DNA from: Perna viridis | Lineage: Eukaryota | Direction: 5' to 3' | Assembly (NCBI GenBank): GCA_037379345.1 | Contig: CM074519.1 | Span: 38,404,103-38,468,102 of the forward strand | Length of the DNA stretch: 64,000 nucleotides | Shown here: in pieces, positions 13,101 through 39,645 of the stretch | Position numbering within the stretch: the stretch's first letter is position 1 | How the letters are laid out: each line of letters starts with the position of its first letter | Program-made: the position numbers and the translations under genes | The notes under the pieces: model-generated | Seen by the model: only the letters and a program-made list of their open reading frames with translations | The model's database searches: none | What the model was told of the DNA's origin: nothing

Positions 13101-16100
13101 AACCTGTTTACCGATTAATAAAATGTGATTTGTCACCAGAAGTGATAACGAGCACTCTAAGTTGATACCTAGTCAGGTTTCTGGTCAATCTCTTCACACA
13201 TTACCTACTGTGGGTATAATTTATCCAGAAATACAAGTATCCTAATTTCACATATTTTGGTGTGAAATGGACATATGGTCAGGGAAGTGGATTGTTCCTG
13301 CAGCCCACTTCTCGCTAGCTCTGTGATCGTTTTCACCTACAGTGAAATGTGTCAACTTTGATTTGGCGGTGTGTTTTATCTTTTTAATTACCAACAAGTG
13401 AACTAGATTTTTATGTAATAAATATGTTATGGTAGTAACGACCCCAGAGGAAAATGGTGTAAATACAAGAGATCTGAAGATAGACACACATGTTCTTCTT
13501 TTGTCTTTTTCAATTTTCAATTTATCACAATTTTTCATCAAAATTAAAATAAAAGAACTTTTACACTTCTGTTCAGTCATTCTCACACCTCGCTTTACGA
13601 TGTTAAGAGCATTATTTCTATTTCGAGATATCTAAATTTACCATCAATACAAAAATAAAGAACTTTTACACTCGTGCTCCAAGAATTTCACACTACAATT
13701 TATTACAATTGGAACCTAAAATTGATAAAATCATGGCCCTCTTCAAACCAATGTCTTTGAACAAAAATTATTATAACACCTTTAAATAATGGCTTGATCT
13801 AAAACTGATCATAAGGTGTTCGTTATCTTTCTGGCATCAGGGCGCATAATGCATAACCAAATTCGTATGAATGCGTTCTACAACTTTGTTTACAATCATA
13901 TGTAATTTGGTTTTTAATATTTGACCTGTTTCAATGCGACTTATTTTCAGTGTGTACAGTATTTCTTATCAAACCCAAGTGTACTATAGTCGAGTAACTA
14001 AAAGTTTCTCCATAATACAGAGAGTTTAGTGCTAAATATATGGTATCAGTCTCAAAATTATTTCGATATATGTGTATGTTCAAATAATTACGTATTATTG
14101 AAGTTGTACAATTTTATGAAATAGTCTTGGGTTCTGATGAGATTATTAATTAAGGGATAAAATTACATTGAAATAAAAATTCTATATTATTAATGTTCGA
14201 TAATAAGGTCCCCAGGTAGTACTTAAGTTTCTCCATCTGGTTATAAATGGTATGAATAGTTTTATGAATTCCCAATAGAACAACACAATATTTTTTTGTG
14301 TCAAGGGGCATGGTAAATTAAGTATTTCGTTTCCTGGTCATATGAGTGCACATTTTAGTAAGGATAATTGACAGCAGAGTTCGGGATGGAGTTATGACTT
14401 GTGATACGGTCATCAAAAACTCTGAAAAGAAAATTACAGGCGTTTTTATAATTAAACAACGAGTGAACATGGTGTGAAGTACACGGCTACTGAAATTATA
14501 CACCTTAATATGGCTACTAATTGTAGGCTGTGTTCTAAAACCTCCAAATAACTCTATTAACTCATGAGTTAAACCGGATCAAGTTTCTTCTTCGACATTT
14601 GATTTGTCTTTTAGACTCGTTGGTCACTACACTTATTCACCTTCTTTTGGAGACGTTGAATATCATAATTCATATCAGTTCGTGATGGCTTGTGATGTTT
14701 TATTTTTGTTTGCTTCAATTTAAAGGATTGAGTTTATAAAAGAAGCTCTAAATTGATTTGAAAACGTCAAAACAGACACTTTAAACTGAAAGATAAATTT
14801 CTTATCGAAAAATGCATGATATTTCTTTTTAACGGATTTGGCTAAGGCGAACGATGTCGACGATTAATAAATCATAAATATATAATATTTTAAACATATA
14901 AAGATTCTGAACACTTTCTAAAGATTCGAAATTTACTGATTTGTTTTGTTCGTGCATTATATTTACGACAACATTTCATAATAAAAGCAATAATAAAGAT
15001 AATTTAACGAACAGGAATTAAATTTTATTATTTTTCTGAAAGGCGTCTAATAAAATAATAACGTCTATTGAAGAAAGGCCAATCTATCTATATGTAGTAC
15101 ACGTTGACAGAAAACACACTTCGCCTTTTATTTAGATTGCGCAATACTACAAGACTTAACGTACCACATATCATTATCATTTAATGTTCTCCGTGATAAT
15201 AAATTATATCATGTAGTTGTGACTAACGCCGTAATGTACAGTATGTCCAAATTTGTCGCCGATTAGTCGGGTTGACCATCATGTTGAATGCCTGTTGATT
15301 TATGGACGGTAAAACTTGAAGATTTATTTAATAATCTGTTTATAAAATGAAGCAAAGCTTTCTTGAGCCTTATGTGAGACAGTTTCTTGTCGCTTGATTC
15401 GCAATATTTAAAGCTGAAAAAATGACGTGCATTAACAACAGTATGTTTTCTATAACCCAACAATATTTGCTGCAACTGATGAAATTTCGCATTTTTTATT
15501 GTTTTTTTTAATACACGTAAGATCATGATGGTTTATGAATGTGTCTTTGTCAAGTGAGTTGCTTGCACAAATCCTGTATTTTGTGGCAATGTTATCGGAA
15601 CAATAACTCTTGACATGTCCATATCTACCAACAATATCAGTGCAGTTTTAACGATTTCCAATGGCTTTATACTGTCTGAAGTTTTCTGTCTCCTAAGATG
15701 AAGCAACGAAAAGTTTGATCTGAAAACAAGATTTTATGGATCTCTCACTGGCTTGGTGTTATGTTGGATAGATACATCTGATATTTCTATCTTTTATTAC
15801 GTTACAATTGACTGAAGTATGCATCACTTTTCTAATCGAATGTTAAAAGTATTATGTGTCAGAATTACCATCTATTCAAAGAAAGTTGACATTTTTAATA
15901 TGAATAATTAAGTTCAAAATGGTTTTAATAATCCCAATCATTATTCAACAATGGAGAACTCAATTCTAGCGATCTCAGTCAATGTGAATATTGTGTCGAG
16001 TCTAGTTACGCAATGTTCTATCGACAGGACCAGTTTCAGGCAACCAGAATTGATGGATATTGTTCTTCCATACAAAAATGGCGCCAGGTCTAATAGAAAT

Positions 16101-19100
16101 CGTCGCTAATTTGTACTATCTTGATCAAATCTCCTATCTAAATTTTGCCGTGGATTTGTTAGGTTTTGTTTAAGTGAACAAACTGTTTTCCTCTCCCTGG
16201 GCTATTGTCACAACTGATCATTCAACTTTCATTTGATATTGTGTAAGTCATCCGGATTTAAATATCTAACGGGAAAGTTTGAGATGATTTTTTACATGAA
16301 AAATAAATCTTTAAACTTCCGTTATTTTACAATTCATTATAATATTTATTTATTTAGTTAAGACTATGTGATGATAGGTTTAGTTAAGATTATGTGATGA
16401 TAGGATTCACATCATGAAAGAAATCATTTTGTGCATTTAAAGTATAAACGTCATGGTGATGCACATTAAACACGAGGCCAATATGTTCACTTTGGGAGCA
16501 GCCATTTCATCTATATGGAGATAAATTGTTTTTTTTTATGATTTTTTTCTCGTTGAAATAACTTTATACATTTTTCACTGAAATCTTTTCATGATAAAAG
16601 TCAAATTCTTTTAATTTTCATGGAAAAGCCGTAGCACTTAAGGACAGCAAAGTTTAGCCTCGACATCGAGCTTAGCTTCCATTGATCACAAGCTTTTTTA
16701 AAAAAATTGGTAGAAATTCCTAGGATAAGAAAACAGTGTATGAAGTGGCTGAAAAACAAACCGTGCAGAAAAGAAATCACTAGAATTTTATGAATGAACC
16801 GTGTTATCAGAAACATATGTTAAAAGCTTCTATGTACATTAAGGCTAATGTAAGAAGCATAGAAATTGACACTAAACTTGTAGAGGGGAAGTCATTACTC
16901 AAATTCTAACATCAATATACTTAGAATCATTTGTTTCAATAATTGTTTAACAACTGAAACTAGTATTGTAAACTTTTCAAAATTTGAGAAACGTAAATTA
17001 AAAAAAAATCAACATATCATTGAAAAACAAACTTGTTCTACAAATTCATAGAAATAAGTTGAACGGTTCTTGCAAGTGCTTTATTTGTTTCCTATTTCTT
17101 TTTTCAGACGATCCTGAACTCAATGCACAAGTATCAGCCTCGTTTCCATTTAGTGCGGGCAAATGACATACTAAAGTTGCCGTACTCTGCCTTCAGAACA
17201 TACGTATTCAAAGAAACAGAGTTTATAGCGGTTACAGCTTACCAAAACGAAAAGGTAACGATTCCTTTAAGAATCTGTCAAGTCGGTAAAGATATTCAAA
17301 ATTGAATAATTAATAAATACTCCTCTTTTCCAGTAATATATTAGCTCGAAGAAATCAGCAAAGTGAAAAACAAATTCTATCAATTGATATGAAATAATAT
17401 GTAGTGGTATGATTAGACTTTCGACTACAAAACAACTTTTAAAGGTACAAGTTCAATATACCAATTTGTGTTTCATTCATCTTATATAAGTTTTGCTACT
17501 TAAGAAAATACATTTTTATAATATTTTATTGTAGATTACCCAGTTGAAAATAAATCATAATCCGTTCGCTAAAGGCTTTAGAGATACTGGCGGAGGAAAG
17601 AGAGAAAAGAAGTAAGTCACACACATAATTGTAGTTTGCTGTCACACAAGTAATGCAAAAACAGTTTTTTTTTTAATGCAAAACAATAAGCATTCTACCC
17701 AGTTGGTATTTTGTTTTACTTATATTATAATAGTATTTAAAGATCGATTAGAATCGAGTATAGTGTTGACACCAATATTCGATTTACCCCCTAATTCTTT
17801 ATTGGCATGATCTTAAATGAACCTGTATTTTTTAGTTTTCTTAGAGTTTATTTTCGGTTGTCGTTCAGTTTTTTTCTCACTGTTATTTTGATTTGGTCTT
17901 TTGTTCTTTGACTTCCGAGGTTCGGATACCATTCAAGTCGTTCTTCAATCAAATGTCTTTCTCTCTCTAAGAAAATATATTAAACGAATTCGAGGTGTTT
18001 CACATGCTAGTTTTTACAGCCAGACACAACACAGGACCACGCCCCTTGTTCAATAGGAATCCTCTACATAGTCCCTACTTTATAGACAGAGATGACAGTG
18101 TAAATTATTACATTTTGATAACAATGACGATTAACTACAACCATGAACACATAACATTGTGTAAAATTAATTACAAATTAACGCTTTTACTGGCTATTGA
18201 ATATATATCGAATCCAACATGACAGTTCATCGGTCTAACTGGGGAGGAAACTTGATGCTACAAATATTGTCCTTTATTAGTTTATTGTCTGATGATTGAT
18301 TTTTGTGTTGAATAATGGAAACTCAAATTTCTTGATAAGTTATTTTTGTCACTAATTAATTCCCTCTCGAATTAGTGTACTCAAATAACACAATGATTCG
18401 GCAAACATCTCACTAATACTTGTGAAATATTGCACATAGTTATAAGCCTCCTTCGGAAGGGTCGTATTCTAAACCGTTTAATGTAAATAATTTATATGTT
18501 AAAAATGAAATCCACCAAACGAACTTTTTAAAATGGTTATAAAAAAGAAACTAAAGCTGTTTAAATTTGATCAGAATATTCTTGAAAGTTTACACTATCT
18601 GAAAATTAAAAGTTTTTTTTATATATTTTGATTTGTTTTGCATGTATCCAATATGGAGTATATTCCAGACTTGGGAAATGAATAATTAATAATATTCAGA
18701 TTTTTAAATTATGAAAGTATAATTACAATTATTCTCTAATTGTATTTATGTTGATTGTTAGTTAAAATGATCGATACTAGAATAAATTATATAATAAAAT
18801 GCCCTCTTTTCAGTTTTTTTTAGGATAAAATAATTGAATTTTCAATCTTTTCCAGTTTTAAATGAATTTATCTATATCAACGGAAGTACTTATGCCATCT
18901 GGGGTCCGGGAGTCCTTATGCCATATGGGGTCCGAGAGTCCAAGACAAGATTTCATTTTACCTAAGTGAACCATTGAAAGAAATGAGATTATGATGTTAA
19001 TGTTTATATCCATTGAAGATAACATTTTCCCTCAGAATTTCATGAATGAAAGTATAGGGAACTGTCGTATCGTTAATATGGACCAAACAAACACTACTGG

Positions 19101-22100
19101 CATAGCTTACACACAGGCCTGTTGTCCTACATTAGTCATCTATCTAAAATCAAGTGAAACTTTGCATGTGTTTGATCAAGGATTAACAAAAGTCTATCTC
19201 TTTATTGTGACCACAAGTGTCTATATCAGTATAGATGTAGCGCCAACGAGGGTGACAGAAACTACATATGTTTATTCTAGTTTTGATGAAGACTCTCGAG
19301 AAATTCCGAAGTAACTAAGACATTCGATTGGTTCGACGCGTCGGGAGTCTGTATTTCAATTACTGGCACGGTGTTCTTTTCAAGTGGTTAGGTAAACAAA
19401 CTGCTCTCGTAATGATTAATCTTGTCCCCTTTACAACAATGTATCAAATGTTTTTTTCCTTTCAGACGTATGCTTTTACAACCAACTAACGCCAGTTCTC
19501 AACATCACGACAACTCCAATACGTACGACACACACAGTGACGACGATGATAATGAAGATGCAGATATTTGCGTCGATGACGACGTCGATGAAAATGTCGA
19601 CGATAAGGATTCAACGCCGAGTTTGCCAACAGTACAAGGTATGGATTTCTGGAGATTATCTTTCTCTTATAATTATGTAAACAAAAAGGCGGGGAATTAA
19701 ACACAGTTCGGCGCCTTTCAATATAAAACAAGCAAGTTGTATTCTTTAAATAAACACTTAGACTGTAGACGGCGGTACTTGAGAGAAAATGTTGACACTC
19801 AGTGAAACGATGAAGTGCATAACTTTTCCTGAATTATCCTTGTCAGTTTGACAACCCCCTTCATAATGAAAAATACTGAAAATATAAACCCAAGACCAAT
19901 TATGGCCACAACAGTTGTAAAACATTCCGACACTTGCCAGATTTCAGCAGATTTAAATTACTTTTTAATAATTTTATGTGATTATAACATAAAGCTACAC
20001 GAAAGTCTTTTATTGAGAAGTCTGGTATAATAAAATTTGATGGATGTGAAAATTTCTAAATTAAGTGTGAAGACATTATTGTAACCAAGCACCCATTAAT
20101 GTGTAAGCTATAGGGGAATTAGTGGTGTTTTATTAAATTATTTGGCTTATTATTATTTCATTGACGAAAACAAATTAATTTCTAAATGATTTCTTTAACT
20201 CTGGAGGTGGTAGAGTAATACCTTTATGAAATAGAAGCAAACTTTAAAACATTCCAGAAATGATTTAACTTTTCATAATAGTCTTTCACTTAATTTTCCA
20301 CTCCTAAACATTTTAGCTAAATTGACAATCCAGTCTTTAACTATTAATTTACTGTAAAAATATCTCATCAAGTTGGTATCTTTATAATACATTATCATAA
20401 CTAAACGACATGTGTGGCGCAGTGATTTCTCAGAGCGAATATGTTTTCTGACAATATCAGTGCATGAATGTCAGAGTCTCCACACTTTCTGACAAGACGA
20501 TTTTATCTCCGGATTCTTATCTCTGTCTACAACACCATAACATGCATTCCGGATTTACCCAGAACCGATTTGTCTGCTACTGTCTTGTTACCTACCTACT
20601 ATCTGTCGCGAGCTGCAGCAAATATCATTATACTCTATACTTAAAAACGCTCAAATGATGCCAGAATGACTCGCCAAAAACGCTGTATCTTTCAGTTTGT
20701 TTATTTGATAGATATTTAGATAAAGTATTTACAAGTTTTTAAAAAGATGAAAATATCTTCGCTCTTATCAAAGATTATCACTCCGATTTTTTGTCTCTCG
20801 TCTAAGATTTACTGCTGTTTCTCACAACTTCCTTGAAACGTTTATAACAAGTTAATATCCCAATTAAAACAAACATAGGTTGATAAAAGAAGAATTTCCC
20901 ACTTACTTCCCTTTATCTTTGCCTCAACTTGTACAAAACGACTTCTTATTAAAACAAGCAAATTCAAGAGACACTATCGAATATTTATTGAAAGCGCGAG
21001 AATATTAACCATGATAAAGGGATTAAGTTATGAGCACTGCTGTATTCATATAAGTGCTTCAAATAAAAACGTTCAATATACTTTAATCGGCGATAATTAG
21101 GCAAGGGGTGTATACAAGATCTTTACTAACTATCAGTTCGCATACAAAATTTAGAATTCGTGTTCTGTTATCAAAAACCAAACACGGTAAAGCCCTGTTT
21201 TTCCGGAACCTTGTAACGACATAGGTGTAAGATTTAACGATGAATGATGGAAGCTTATGTAATCTCATTTATTTATTAACTCTTTCTATCATATCGCTTG
21301 CAAACTTTTGACATTATTTAACACCATGCTTCAAAATAGGCATTTAAAAGTTTAATGTATATATCCAATAGTGATAGCTAATTCCGTGTATCTTTTGAGT
21401 TTACTTTTGTAATTGAGTGTCTTTGAGACTATCTAAAACCCGCGATTAGCTAAGTCTTTACATGATAAAACGAGTAAACTTAACGTTTAACTTGGTAAAT
21501 AGTCAACAAACAACTACAAAATCCGTTAATGGCTATGGTATATTTCTTTAAAAGTACTCTGACGAGTTTACTAGGGCTTCAAGGAAACTTTTCTACAGAT
21601 ATAAAGATTTAACACTTCGTTGATATTTGCGTTTTTAATTTCATAATAAAGAGCTACCTTTAAGAAAGGAACAACCTAATCAAGACATTTAAGTTATTGA
21701 CCTTAGCACTAAGCGCTTAATAAAATACCTCTCCAATTTCTTTTCAGAAAATCTTACGAAAATTGAAGAAATGAAAACAGAGGAGCATGAACGTGGGCAA
21801 GGGCAATTTAACACTGAATCACCCGATGCTAAAATGTCGGAAATAGATGATAAGGAATCCGAAGTCGACAAGAGAGAGCATTCAGTGATTTGTGAACGAG
21901 AAAAACACGAAATTGAAAAACGTGAACCAAAAGCATTATATAGACCACATGAGCTCGGAGATCGTGGAAAGGAATTTCCGAAGATTCAATTACCTTCTCC
22001 GACCATGGATAAAGTACTGGACTCTAGAAACTCTCACAGTGACACCTCAGACAATGACTCGAGAATAGAATCCCCCGAGAGAAGTAAATCACCTGCTAGT

Positions 22101-22805
22101 CCCGCTGTGACCCGTCATATGGGGTCCAGTCACAGTTTTCTCTCTAAAGACTTTTCTAGTCCGCCAAATGTGACCATAGTCCAACCTTCGCCATCTCATT
22201 CGATGTTCCCTTTCTTTTATCCATACTCGTCGTCATCATCCGGACTCCATCCGTACCAGTTAAATCCCATGTTATTACCAGGGAATCCGTCTCTACCTCC
22301 GGGACTTCAACTTCCGTTCATCCCATCGTCGAGACATTCGGAGATGGGTCATCTATCACCTAGTCACTCGCATGCTCTTTCAACGCTAAATCAACTGACT
22401 CTTCAAAATCATATGTTGTCCCAGAGTTATTCTAGTCTAAGTTCCGAGCTCAGTGGTAACAGCTCAGTATCCCCGACACAAAATACAACGGTCGGACCAA
22501 TTTTCCCATCACGCACTAGTCCCAGATACTCTCCGTATTCTCTTCAATCGTCAAAATCATTTGTGCAAAGTACATCGCCTGGTTCCGGAAACGGAAGTAG
22601 GAATGAACAAGAAGCAGTTGGTATAAGTCGACCGTCTCCGATTAGACCACGAAGCCCTCTTACTCATCAAATTCCTTTCAGTTCTCTTCAAAACTCAACA
22701 AATCCAAATAATGAACTGAGACATATGGAACGAATGTTAAATGTATTGGACAGAAAAAGACTAGACGCACAGGAAAGGGAGAGAGCCATGTCAGATGTTC
22801 ATTAA
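9829..22805 (+). CDS. Tbx2: T-box transcription factor Tbx2/3 (omb-like), six coding exons, 687 aa: join(9829..10169,12574..12841,17108..17254,17535..17611,19466..19638,21748..22805)
   Basis: Spliced frame is continuous (341+268+147+77+173+1058=2064 nt) with GT/AG at every junction. Complete T-box [34 protein letters not shown]...NPFAKGFRD. Tbx2/3-type features: MAYNPF N-terminus, [33 protein letters not shown] and C-terminal [14 protein letters not shown] (cf. vertebrate SELQSIQRLVSGLE). Start could be a downstream Met (MAMAYNPF). Confidence 0.95.
12574..12841 (+). CDS. Tbx2: Tbx2/3 coding exon 2 (T-box)
   Basis: Acceptor tttcag at 12573; [24 protein letters not shown]...[15 protein letters not shown]; donor T|GTAAGT at 12841/12842 (phase 0). 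Confidence 0.96.
13028..13821. promoter_or_regulatory. Cluster of T-box half-sites in intron 2 (candidate autoregulatory element)
   Basis: AGGTGTTC 13028, AGGTGTTA 13050, TCACACAT 13194, TGGTGTGA 13258, TGGTGTAA 13455, TCACACCT 13583, TAACACCT 13774, AGGTGTTC 13814. Confidence 0.45.
16353..16404. repeat. 26-bp tandem duplication (intron 2)
   Basis: TTTAGTTAAGA(C/T)TATGTGATGATAGG x2. Confidence 0.85.
17108..17254 (+). CDS. Tbx2: Tbx2/3 coding exon 3 (T-box)
   Basis: Polypyrimidine tract and cag at 17107; [49 protein letters not shown]; donor AAG|GTAACG (phase 0). Confidence 0.96.
17535..17611 (+). CDS. Tbx2: Tbx2/3 coding exon 4 (end of T-box, basic NLS-like stretch); absent from the ORF track
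   Basis: Acceptor ttgtag at 17534; [25 protein letters not shown]; donor AA|GTAAGT (phase 2). Confidence 0.95.
18889..18940. repeat. 26-bp tandem duplication (intron 4)
   Basis: CTTATGCCAT(C/A)TGGGGTCCG(G/A)GAGTC x2. Confidence 0.85.
19466..19638 (+). CDS. Tbx2: Tbx2/3 coding exon 5 (acidic linker)
   Basis: Acceptor tttcctttcag at 19465; phase fits exon 4 (AA+A=Lys); [15 protein letters not shown]...[18 protein letters not shown]...PTVQ; donor G|GTATGG (phase 1). Confidence 0.85.
21748..22805 (+). CDS. Tbx2: Tbx2/3 coding exon 6 (Ser/Pro-rich C-terminal region, stop TAA)
   Basis: Acceptor ttcttttcag at 21747; G+AA=Glu continues in frame into the 344-aa ORF 21771..22805; RYSPY and terminal amphipathic motif typical of Tbx2/3. 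Confidence 0.9.
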
Positions 22806-31269: not shown

Positions 31270-33153
31270 TCAATACACAGATTTGTTATATACTTTGTCT
31301 CTCGTCATTAACTCATCCCAAACAAAAAATTGTTAGATCGAATGTTTTCATTTCTTTTTTTTGTAGCAAGTATCATTGGTGATAGTTTTTAGGTTTAAGG
31401 TACTTGTATATTCTACCATTTAGTTACTTTTGATTTGAGGATTTTTGTAGACGTAAAACTATAGAAAAGACGGAGATCAGATAGATTTAAACCAGCACAC
31501 ACAAACAAATATCCCTTTTGTAGACAATTCGTCGTGACAAGTACAACTTCATAGAATTGTTGTTCCATCCTGATCTGTGGAAACAGATCATTTATGTATT
31601 TTTTAAAAAATATTTTCATGCTTTTTTTCCATTATATATCACATTTTTAAGAATGCCCCATGGAACAGTATTTTAAATGATTTATACTTTCTTGGTTTTC
31701 TGGTTGCTGCATGTCTACTTGGACTAATCAGTGTCTTATTATGCAATATATATCTACATATTATATTACAGTGATGACAAGGAAATAACCAAATGACTTT
31801 ACTATTCCAACAAGACTAGACACAATAACGGATTGCGGTAAATATACAGAGGGTGTATATCAGCATTTTATGGCTCATCAACCCTCAAACAACACCGAAA
31901 GTAGTCTATTACCATCATGATTATGTGCAAAGATCATTACGCCAATTTATACCACACAAACAGTAAATCTGGTACAAGTTGTATACACATAAAAGTTAAT
32001 TTTATCTTCACTTTTCTATTGAGCTATGTCTATAAAAGTCGTTTTACACCCTTCTTTAAACACTCAAATTCATATTTAAAATCCATACAAAAGTCGTGTT
32101 TATTACGGCAAGGGTACTTGAGGCAGAAATTATCAAAATAGTGACCAGCCTGAGGATAAATATAGTCTCCTGTCGCCGAACTCTCTAGTTCTCAGACGCC
32201 CCTCTCCACTTAGTTTACTTATGTGTGTAAATTTAATACGCGAGGCGTCAGACTGGACCGAGAACGATCCAGCACTTAGAATGGCATTTACGAATTTTAA
32301 CACCTTAAGTATATTTCAAACTTTCTCTTCATTGCACATGTGATTTGTTCTGAATAAAATTAAAGTTTAAAGTAAATAGGATTCATTTCTCTATAAACAT
32401 TTGTTTAAGATTAACCATAAAAGAAAGGGCGGATCATCATACATACGATAGAATTTTAAAATCTTCACACCAAACTCGCCAAATATTAGGACTAATCCAA
32501 AATATGTGACGAAAGAACCGAAGGGACAACGACATCGAGACGGAGACTTTCCAAAAAACTATAACGTATTTATTGGTGGGATTTTATATATACATTGTAT
32601 TACTGCAAATAATTGTAAGAAAAAAATATATGTCAGTACCTCACAATAATATGCTTGGAAACTTGCAACCGCCTCCTAATTTACTACGTTTCACTCCGCT
32701 AGTTAACATGCAAAGCTTTAAAATATAATAGCGAATATACCCTCTGAGCAGGTGATTGAGCCAGATACGATGTTGTAAGACTTAACCTATACACGGAAAG
32801 ATCGCTTAGATTATGCAAGATGTGCTCACTAAGTAAAATTGAGGATGTAACTCACTTTTTAACAGAATATCCTTTTTATTATGATGTATGTAAAGAATTC
32901 TATTCATTTGTGAATATTACACATGCAAATGTTTTAAAGGCAATGATAATTTATTTAGATCTAAATGGTTACTAAACAACGAAGATCTATAAACCTCAAC
33001 GAATGTTTTAAGAAACTTGAAATTGTAATTTTATATTGTAATAGTATATACATTATGAATACATATATCATGTTAGTATTAATTCATGCTTATACTATCC
33101 TTGGATATATACAATTGTCTTGTGTTTATCATCGTAATTATTACGAAACCCAT

Positions 33154-33360
33154 GAGCGGATCTCGCACGACCGCCCCTTACGGGGATTCTGTTAGTAAAT
33201 GTCTGTTAGTAGTTGGAGGTAGCGGAGCCCAGCCTTCGGGATACCCGACCGAACAACTCAGAGTATGTCGTACTAGCGGCTGGGCTGTTCTGTTGACGCT
33301 CTGACCTACTCCCAGACCCCACGTGGGTCCAAGGGCGTTTACCCACTCTAACTGTTTGGA
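33154..33360 (+). other. GC-rich, highly self-complementary island (candidate structured RNA or TE leader)
   Basis: Several nested stems and one crossing helix; see findings. Confidence 0.4.
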
Positions 33361-34679
33361 AGTACGTCAACGTGAAGAGTGTAGGAAAATAAAGGTATTC
33401 CACTCTATTTATACGACTAGAAATCTCGGAAATTCATGGTGGTCACATGATCAAAACGAGACATCTCGGAAGAACCACATTAATTTCATTAAGCTTTATA
33501 AAAAAAACTCTTTGATGGCGTATTATTTCATATATAATCTACATATATCATTTCAAATATAAAATACAACAGAGCGTTCAAATAGCAATAATTTAAAAAT
33601 AGGGAGAAATGTATTAATAAATAAAGGCTTTCTTTAAGCATCGTGAAATACCCAAATAAATATATAACGGCGCCTTCAATTACAGACAAATCCGTAATGT
33701 TTAAGAACTGTAGTGTTGGGAAGTCGAGCCTTTATTGCTTCATTCATTGACCCGCGCCAAAATTACGGTATAAAATTCATTAACGCATATGTTGTCAGAG
33801 ATAACCTCATGTATTTATACAAACAATCTGATTGGCTATTACCAGTTTTGACTACAAATCTACTGGTTGCTTTCCGGTGTCATAAGTGGATTATCATATT
33901 GTGAAGCAGCCGCCGTAGTATATGATTGCTGCTTTCTTATGCGTAACAATCCTACAGAGACATATTTCTAACACTGGAATATACTACTTAAAATATCAAA
34001 GATAGTTTACACACGATAACAAGAAATTTGTCTGTTTTAATTCTCCTGTAATTGTCTGTTGATTGCCTTCAATGTCTTTCAATTTTGAACTTGGAATACT
34101 TATTTTACAGATAATTGAGATTACGGTTATTGTGCACGCTCCGAATACCGAGATATCTTGCGAACTTTTAAAAGTTTCCCCCTCCATTTTGGGCACATTT
34201 ATACATATCCATTTAGGAGAGTAAGCGACTTCAATGTCTTGTACAGATTTTTAAGTCTGATTTTTTTGCGACTGAATTATGTTTTTTCTTTATTTTATTC
34301 AGCATGAACAACCTTACAACTCCAATTTTAATGCAAACACGACACTTCCGTTTCCAAACTGTCTTCATCTTAAAAAAAAAATCTTTTCCCTGCACATGCC
34401 ACTTATCAATATGTTCATTGATTGAAAAAGTGTATTTTTGAAATATTTTCAGATGCTTGTTACCGTTTCAAAAAGACCTGTGCAGGGCTTTTTATTGTTG
34501 ATTAATTTTGAAAAAAAAAATTCTGAAAACAATATAAATGACATCGTCAAAACTTCGTTTTTGCGTTAAAATTATATTGTCCTCGCCTGAAAAAATAAAC
34601 AAGTGCGAGCGTTCACCCAAGTATTTCCCTTTGTTAATTGTATTAATTGTATTTTTTGTTCAACGTGTCAAAGTTTTCC

Positions 34680-38460: not shown

Positions 38461-39645
38461 GACTTAATCGGGATGGTATGCCAACAATAACGAACAGCAA
38501 CGAATTGTATTACCGACCGCCGTGTATGCTTGTGAAACCTGGGATAATCTGACTTTTACCGAAATTCAGATGCTTGAACAAACGCAGCGTTACTTTGTTC
38601 GTTTTATTCTTGGCTTTGATAGACAGTCACCGACAGATTCGTGTATCTTCAATATTGGATTGTGGTCAATCGAGGGACTAATTGACAAGTTTAAATTACT
38701 TTTGTTTGGTAGATTTTGCAGAGTCAAACACAATACAACACATCAACAATTATTCTGTATCTGTTTAGGCCAGATTTTTACTGGAGATTGTAATGAAAAC
38801 TCATTGACATATGATATGATAAACATTTTTATTAAATACGATGTTATGTTTCCTGGAGTGTTTTCATGAGGATACTTTTATTCCCGACAAACGACTTTGG
38901 TAAAAAAAAAAAAATCATTAAACAGACAATAGACATTCAGGAAGAAACTCGATGGAAATCATCCATACAAAATTGTCCGGGACTTGATAGGTTTTACCGC
39001 ACTCACAACACGTTAACCGAGCATAGAATACTTCGTCTAACATCGGTGAATCCAGAACTAAATCAGCAACTGCTGGTCATGGACAAAATAGGATCTCTAG
39101 CTATTAAAGAGGGAATATGTACCATGTGTAATCGTTACCAACATGACATAGTGAAACATTTAATTCGAAACTGTGAACAACTTATTGATGAGAGAAACAC
39201 TATGTTCTATTATCTTATTGACATATTGCCAGTTTAGCAAACCGTAACGTTCTTCCTTCAGGACGAGGACGATATACTTGTATCCCTACTCGGTGGAATT
39301 ACTGACTTCATAGATACTCTAGAATCCAATGAGTGGAAACACCTGATGTACTCTTTGGCAGATCACGTTTATAAAATGTACCTCAAATTCAAACCTGTTT
39401 TAAGCAACCATAGATTCAATTTTGCTCACTGAAATGTCATATATATTTTTGTACTTGATTTTTTTTCTTTTTTTATAATATATGATTTAATTTGATGTAA
39501 ATTGTTGTTTTTTGGTTTTTTTTGTGTATATTGTTTACTAATTGTGTCCCTTTTGTATGTAAATTAGTGTTGTGCATATAAAAAATGTAACTCATCATTA
39601 TTGGTGGAAATAAAGAAAATCAATCAATCAATCAATCAATCAATC
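38461..39645 (+). mobile_element. 5'-truncated non-LTR retrotransposon (LINE) ORF2 3' end with (AATC)7 tail
   Basis: RIVLPTAVYACETW...MLEQTQRYFVRFILG...IDKFKLLLFGRF (post-RT region), zinc-knuckle CTMC...HLIRNC, LLGG, terminal stop 39430-39432; frameshifts and an internal stop at 39235-39237; AATAAA 39609-39614; (AATC)7 39618-39645. Clade not assignable by eye. Confidence 0.85.

Follow-up and report, generated by a model that had tools for sequence, protein, structure and literature searches.

A damaged SINE-like retroposon copy forms a GC-rich island in the genome of Perna viridis, and many insertions of its family lie behind a TATA-like motif

What is the compact, GC-rich island at positions 33154–33360 of a 64,000-nt stretch of the Perna viridis genome (assembly GCA_037379345.1, contig CM074519.1; this whole stretch is hereafter 'the window')? 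An earlier note, made from the sequence alone, had singled it out as an isolated island with nested stems and a pseudoknot on the plus strand, and had proposed a structured non-coding RNA (ncRNA), a decayed ribozyme, or a retroelement leader. Part of that description stands: the GC content is 56 per cent in the island and 32 per cent in the whole window, a window search found no second copy, there is no credible open reading frame (just two short ATG frames enter from the flank), and the arms of the named helices are all present where the note placed them. Upstream of the island there is a T-box transcription factor gene (window 9829–22805, plus strand, Pfam T-box), whose last large open frame is ~10 kb away. 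Elsewhere in the window, at 38468–39237 (plus strand), two overlapping frames resemble, by eye, a decayed C-terminus of a LINE ORF2.

The island as a truncated retroposon copy

The island turned out not to be isolated. A search of the genome (723 Mb in 46 contigs) gave 1237 first-look candidates, of which 40 were scored, and the other scored copies are 91–93 per cent identical over nearly the whole query. It represents one minus-strand copy, damaged at its 3' end, of a SINE-like retroposon ~265 nt long. The element's actual edges are 33157 and 33381; it is read on the minus strand from a sharp start at 33381 and ends at a broken edge at 33157. Its head is ~5 per cent away from the family majority. 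The copy and its surroundings comprise the following features:

33157–33381, minus strand: SINE-like retroposon copy, assigned to subfamily A, of which 225 of ~265 nt remain after loss of the 3' end
33382–33393, minus strand: probable remaining copy of the target-site duplication, with its extent set by the 11–12-bp family mode
33226–33286, minus strand: body hairpin closed by the 9-bp AGCCCAGCC/GGCTGGGCT stem (folds, alignment)
33174–33185, minus strand: hairpin of subfamily A, with a GTAA loop of the GNRA type, absent from subfamily B
33157–33173, minus strand: 5' half of a LINE-type 3' recognition stem-loop (partner arm and (CAT)n tail deleted)
32790–33156, plus strand: older low-copy repeat, host to the insertion, with a microsatellite at its end (resumes at ~33382)

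The older repeat is likely the 3' end of an old LINE. Since in homologues of the flanks it runs on beyond the far side of the element, a later deletion likely took the tail, one target-site duplication (the partner of the surviving copy), and ~10 host bases from the window copy. Two studies have public contigs that span the junction at the broken edge; one of these studies may have supplied the assembly itself. Because the tail is absent and a T stands at position 33304, where the linker of the head has a candidate catalytic C in most copies, the window copy is probably inert.

Comparison with other copies separates the proposed helices into those that belong to the family and those that do not. 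The interval 33154–33360 has no match in Rfam and folds no better than shuffled sequences (z = −1.22 on the plus strand and −1.44 on the minus strand), and the 10-bp outer stem is complete in none of the 78 other copies; it requires two private substitutions (33341 and 33334) and is therefore private to the window copy. For this interval and this stem, then, the energy is like that of shuffles and substitutions ignore the helix, an outcome that the earlier note had itself listed as counting against its proposal. The TGGAGGTAG/CTACTCCCA helix is kept in part of subfamily A (21 of 53 copies) but in just 1 of 25 copies of subfamily B, the CCCC/GGGG hairpin is a feature of subfamily A but is absent from B (0/25), and the GCGG arm at 33156–33159 spans the element's broken edge. 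Two helices are family-wide, the 9-bp AGCCCAGCC/GGCTGGGCT stem (complete in 46/78) and the GACCC/GGGTC hairpin (63/78). Two more survive in many copies, the TCAGAG/CTCTGA pairing (54/78) and the TCGGG/CCCGA hairpin (67/78).

On the plus strand, these last two are kept in the family majority through a G.U pair, and antisense folds of the family are also stable, as would be expected if a functional ncRNA or ribozyme were encoded on that strand. We consider such a product very improbable. The outer stem is missing from all other copies, the z-score of the interval is −1.2, and no HDV-like order is found on the plus strand from any start. Moreover, one raw RNA run contains a single read at 96 per cent or higher over 32800–33800 and none in the flanks. 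An independent, unannotated ncRNA gene is incompatible with the copy number and with the hallmarks of insertion. The suggested link to Penelope (PLE) is opposed by target duplications, the (CAT)n tail, and the LINE-type 3' end, and the Penelope-like element/retrozyme class was rejected because Rfam scans of the island and of intact copies show no hammerhead and the RNA run has no going-back joints indicative of circles. Of the other readings on offer, the structured retroelement leader was right as to the retroelement, but the island derives from a whole short retroposon and not from a leader fragment; the decayed ribozyme pointed in the right direction, but to the wrong strand and the wrong helices.

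A SINE-like family with two subfamilies

Copies of the family are interspersed and sharp-ended, have variable target duplications and a tandem-repeat tail, and share their 3' end with a LINE; the family is therefore a non-autonomous, SINE-like non-LTR retroposon. Its exact 17-base head occurs 257 times genome-wide (control: 0). Target duplications are present in 20 of 30 copies, compared to 16 of 870 cross-pairs, in 41 of 58 copies with unique flanks, and in 31 of 60 unselected heads (mode 11; family length 11–12 bp). The 58-copy set derives from 72 matches, 65 of them with intact starts, after removal of 7 with duplicated flanks or representing second tandem units; the 60 unselected heads were taken in genome order from the 257-head list, with most of the already-sampled ones skipped. 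When these 60 heads were followed downstream over ~700 bases, 47 proved to be complete SINEs and the other 13 break at scattered places. In the flanks of 30 copies, the 3' end consists of A- and C-runs followed by (CAT)n.

Two subfamilies, A and B, have nt 1–168 in common and differ in their last ~100 nt. ARAGORN predicts no tRNA gene in six loci, and intact copies match no Rfam family and no small-RNA head. With no small-RNA-derived head, the family is not a canonical SINE with a tRNA, 5S, or 7SL head and polymerase III transcription. One 20-base pattern gave no matches to relatives from other species in metagenome contigs. A ~460-bp element with inverted ends sits within the SINE body at two loci (L103 and L115), and one B copy (L242) is itself inserted in such an element.

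The body hairpin contains an AGUA/GAA internal loop that we take, by eye, to be loop-E-like, and on the minus strand G.U changes between the subfamilies leave its inner stem intact. Fold z-scores are −3.9 for one B copy and −1.2 for one A copy, and for nt 1–168 the mean of 27 copies is −2.8 in the sense and −2.1 in the antisense orientation. At non-CpG sites, substitutions affect 3.5 per cent of paired and 4.3 per cent of unpaired positions (p = 0.04), a difference too weak to use.

The 3' tail and a likely partner LINE

The last ~50 nt of the SINE match, at up to 82–84 per cent, the 3' end of an I-group LINE that was found through an RNase H search and whose long 3' UTR ends in (TTAG)n. The RNase H domain is recognized by Pfam, and the reverse transcriptase (RT) and zinc-knuckle motifs were read by eye; from this domain layout and the bivalve literature, this LINE is probably Nimb-type. 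The same tail stem-loop folds in subfamily A, in the LINE, and in a third, (TAG)n-ended tail, and it is held by different base pairs in A, B, the LINE, and the (TAG)n-ended fragment; the row for L168 was left out of the tail comparison because its coordinates were wrong. In the alignment of A with B, three of the four pairs with two-sided change fall in the 3' tail, and none in the head. Being kept with different base pairs across four tails, the stem-loop has the pattern that would be expected of a recognition signal. The third tail variant was seen at L254 (1595–1665) and L100, and its parent element was not found.

Among the best matches examined (20 of 40 for the A tail, 30 of 40 for the B tail, 30 of 72 for RNase H, and 60 of 257 for the heads), none is a LINE ending in (CAT)n, and the (TTAG)n LINE may therefore be only a relative of the true partner. 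The SINE head, which in an LP-SINE or an internally deleted LINE (SIDE) would recur at the 5' end of an autonomous LINE, was likewise unmatched on the 5' ends of three LINE families in best-candidate searches. Two other candidate partners were rejected. Among DUF6451-bearing RTEs, 50 loci have no nucleotide match to the SINE, a different tail, and no TATA signature; a young I-group LINE with a 1247-aa ORF2 and a (CAAT)n tail has an unrelated 3' end and the TATA-like motif at 1 of ~11 junctions.

These searches also brought up several other elements. Copies of the young I-group LINE (L221–L232, e.g. L227 from ~1301), many of them on contig C15, have intact 491-aa and 1247-aa frames, a C-run start, and an HDV-like leader with a long P4. 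In a young RTE family (L062–L080; L067, 1287–1520), an HDV-like P1 begins at the element's first base and J1/2 is ~170 nt long. Another RNase H-bearing LINE family (L126–L142) combines a very short 3' UTR with a (GAA)n tail. Upstream of a truncated LINE at L154 lies an intronless frame of 294 aa (6255–7139, plus strand), in which a methyltransferase-like motif is seen by eye. At L153 (~2722–2750) and L239 (~2920), an extra 20–35 bases separate the target duplication from the LINE 5' start, possibly through 5' transduction or template jumps.

SINE and LINE-type units repeatedly occupy the same site. Four units (SINE copies and LINE-type 3' fragments) with one duplicated sequence between them make up L100, and at L254 a B copy and a LINE-type fragment, likewise with one duplication between them, lie at a host site also used by two LINE copies (L162 and L163). 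SINE copies stand directly behind a LINE tail at L170, L284, L310, and L334. TSD-(unit-TSD)n arrays were observed at L100 (~290–950, minus strand), L098, L091, L254, L259, and L270, with SINE subfamilies mixed with short LINE-type 3' fragments at one site in L100 and L254.

The head: HDV-like order and promoter-like motifs

The 5' portion of the element carries two overlapping sets of signals, both read on the minus strand:

33292–33381, minus strand: head with a predicted HDV-like order (P1, 33376–33381/33344–33349; P2, 33365–33371/33292–33298)
Further parts of the head, minus strand: 2-bp P3; L3, 33353–33361; GG, 33342–33343; P4, 33308–33336; linker, 33299–33304
33376–33381, minus strand: Inr-like start CACTCT, coinciding with the 5' strand of the HDV-like P1
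33349–33353, minus strand: DPE-like AGTTA, occupying +28 to +32 as counted from the A of the Inr-like motif

Beginning at nucleotide 1, the HDV-like order is found in 38 of 79 copies, compared to 17 and 27 of 3000 shuffles, with a descriptor that was tuned after the sequence had been seen until it recovered both controls. The controls are the leaders of the RTE family and of the young I-group LINE; three earlier descriptors missed the former. Full HDV features are present in 5/5 RTE leaders and 6/7 young I-group LINE leaders, in both cases with three pairs in P3, G in L3, and a CNAA linker, and the RTE leader matches the Rfam family drz-agam-2-2 (E = 0.014).

The head might be an HDV-like ribozyme of variant but active form, which would release the element from host read-through transcripts and in this way set its uniform 5' end, as the L1Tc/NARTc leader does. 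Several observations agree with this idea in addition to the excess over shuffles and the mean head z-scores of the 27 copies. Of 79 copies, 74 retain the candidate catalytic C, and the lengths of L3 (9) and of the linker (6) equal those of the C-starting leader of another I-group LINE. Active ribozymes starting with C1 are described for the L1Tc/ingi clade in the available part of PMC4035085, the authors of which consider earlier screens too strict. The core of the ribozyme, however, is missing: G at L3 position 6 (the equivalent of G25) occurs in 0/79 copies, a three-pair P3 in just 4/79, and the CNAA linker in just 4/79 (the C being followed by CAG), and no copy of 79 combines all three, whereas the controls pass. 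There is no Rfam match to the head, while the RTE leader has one. In P1–P4 no two-sided change was detected in 28 rows, although the columns barely vary between the subfamilies. An 8-bp helix competes with P3, and six copies are without the 3' strand of P3. On the present tests we therefore do not count the head among HDV-like ribozymes, as it lacks the L3 G, the third P3 pair, and the CNAA linker, and cleavage by the head in its present form seems unlikely. Descent of the head from an HDV-like ribozyme leader is a somewhat better than even prospect. Judged by eye, a hammerhead reading of the CTGA-CTGA segment fails, since stem II does not form and the four bases are a subfamily indel.

The other set of signals, two short motifs, would point to transcription by polymerase II. 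The start fits YANWYY in 62 of 79 copies, which we take to be an Inr-like motif, and the site at +28 to +32 fits RGWYV in 60 of 79, presumably as a DPE-like motif. In six of the 79 copies, four bases that overlap this site are missing. An identical Inr/DPE-like spacing is present in two of the three 5' ends examined of the tail-sharing LINE.

In one raw RNA run, 190 of 10.35 million reads fall on one family copy and its flanks; they come in both orientations and mostly continue into other sequence. Neither sharp or shared read ends nor a discrete transcript start were seen in this run. The reads fit passive inclusion in host transcripts and scarcely address a rare discrete RNA.

A TATA-like motif upstream of insertions

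The flank of the window copy carries a further feature upstream of the element's start:

33406–33413, minus strand: TATA-like motif TATAAATA, starting exactly at −32 from the element

We scored matches to TATAWAW with at most one mismatch, starting at −35 to −29 in unique flanks. The motif precedes 44 of the 58 unique-flank copies (control windows: mean 6.3, maximum 10), 14 of 22 full subfamily B copies, and 35 of the 60 unselected copies (control: mean 7.4, maximum 14), the remaining 25 being without it. Perfect motifs were found at 16 of the 60 unselected heads versus 0.9 in the control, and genome-wide at 62 of 257 heads versus ~1.5 per cent of control windows (the 62 are 68 pattern rows after merging of overlaps, and six of them share one flank). 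In 28 copies, the motif starts at −32.5 ± 1.0 relative to the element and at −21.2 ± 1.1 relative to the duplication, a spread that cannot distinguish which cut is measured. A 5'-truncated copy (L117) has the motif, by eye, at −30.

The RTE family of the same genome has the motif at 5 of 24 insertions, one of them perfect. For the tail-sharing LINE, three of six independent junctions with a defined duplication carry it (L151, L153, and L174) and three do not (L167, L171, and the L177 group). Among the LINE junctions scored, that of L234 was judged spurious and dropped. We conclude that insertion is probably motif-guided. Given unique flanks and copies that mostly seem neutral, the motif more likely reflects target choice than later selection. 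A motif of this kind was not found in the literature searched, which covers only part of the field; a paper on mosquito SINEs is said possibly to mention TATA motifs upstream.

Who reads the motif? The logo TATAWAW with its sharp peak at −32, the greater frequency of perfect motifs in the element's orientation (22/58) than in the reverse (13/58), and the Inr-like motif at the start of the head would all suit a host TATA-binding protein (TBP) or pre-initiation complex that guides integration and so creates a composite promoter at each new copy. A TATA box, however, usually starts at −31/−30 relative to the A of the Inr, and here the motif begins 33 bases before that A, ~2 beyond the usual distance. 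Many of the matches, moreover, are near-symmetric TATATA runs, and the TAAAAA of LINE and SINE tails seems equally usable. Upstream patterns that are read by an element's own protein have precedents: in the accessible text of PMC5814959 such a target pattern is described for L1Tc, and in that of PMC6007223 a remote target motif, a T-stretch at about −10, for RTE. Guidance by host factors consequently strikes us as rather doubtful. We give equally little credence to a fuller version, in which a polymerase II SINE lineage homes to TATA boxes via TBP and a promoter built at each insertion replaces an ancestral HDV-like ribozyme as the means of securing the 5' end.

A proposed mechanism and its significance

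The explanation that we prefer, with good though not full confidence, is a non-coding retroposon family that likely uses the RT and endonuclease of an I-group (probably Nimb-type) LINE, is likely transcribed by polymerase II from a promoter within its head, and likely inserts through a protein that recognizes a TATA-like motif lying ~21 bases ahead of the first cut. A source copy would be transcribed from the Inr/DPE-like head, which would give the uniform 5' end. The LINE protein would then bind both the tail stem-loop of the transcript and the TA-rich motif in the target, nick the DNA two helical turns downstream of the motif, and reverse transcribe in place, leaving the 11–12-bp duplication. 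The motif and the first duplication would survive the insertion, and the TAAAAA of the new tail would mimic the motif; in this way the reuse of sites and the growth of arrays could be accounted for.

Regarded thus, the family is a large and clean data set on target choice by I-group LINE machinery, in which the TATA-like motif stands two helical turns ahead of the cut with a precision of ~1 base. The tandem arrays of bivalve SINEs would be explained as reuse of a single site. If, on the other hand, TBP guides insertion, this would be a non-LTR element that targets polymerase II core promoters and is able to disturb or create them. With the two intact leaders of the same genome as controls, the head can also serve to test whether decay can reduce a LINE-type ribozyme leader to a pure promoter. 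In our opinion, the TATA-like target rule is the part most worth following.

Comparison with known systems

The closest known systems are the LP-SINEs of gastropods and bivalves and the Pr77-type elements. As described in the accessible portion of PMC4758252, LP-SINEs are also short, flanked by duplications, and equipped with a tandem-repeat tail and a head that is not derived from a small RNA, and for them, too, polymerase II transcription and a link to Nimb LINEs have been proposed. Their head, however, is Nimb-17-like (Fig. S2 of PMC4758252), whereas the head of the present family differs by eye and has no homology to the 5' ~70 bp of Nimb-17/I-3_DR in that by-eye comparison. LP-SINEs carry the promoter head of a LINE, whereas no LINE with the present head was found in the best-candidate searches. 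The word 'TATA' does not occur in the main text of PMC4758252 as available.

The Meta and V SINEs of bivalves, which are mobilized by Nimb LINEs, likewise have LINE-derived tails (35–61 bp at 72–95 per cent identity), swap modules, and form TSD-(SINE-TSD)n arrays, but they have a tRNA head, which the present family lacks (PMC11481361, accessible part). No central domain was detected by Rfam, which is without the known Meta/V-type domains, and strings from the family had no match in the supplementary files of PMC11481361; the family may already be in some bivalve repeat library.

In RTE-related SINEs, too, a motif precedes the first cut by a constant helical distance, but there it is a T-stretch ~10 bases upstream, whereas here it is TATAWAW ~21 bases upstream (PMC6007223, in the portion available). 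The local RTE family matches the SINE family in neither sequence nor motif.

A further parallel is with NARTc, RIME, and SIDER, the Pr77-bearing elements of the L1Tc/ingi clade, which, in the available text of PMC3185411, PMC4035085, and PMC5814959, are likewise non-autonomous partners of an RNase H-bearing LINE. The Pr77 leader combines a DPE-type promoter and a C1-starting HDV-like fold in one stretch, as does the head here. It is, however, common to the LINE and its partners, and its cleavage has been demonstrated, whereas the core ribozyme residues are missing from the present head (PMC3185411 and PMC4035085, same limitation). Insertion sites of the L1Tc clade are likewise preceded by a conserved pattern, GAxxAxGa...TATG in their case and TATA-like in ours (PMC5814959, accessible text).
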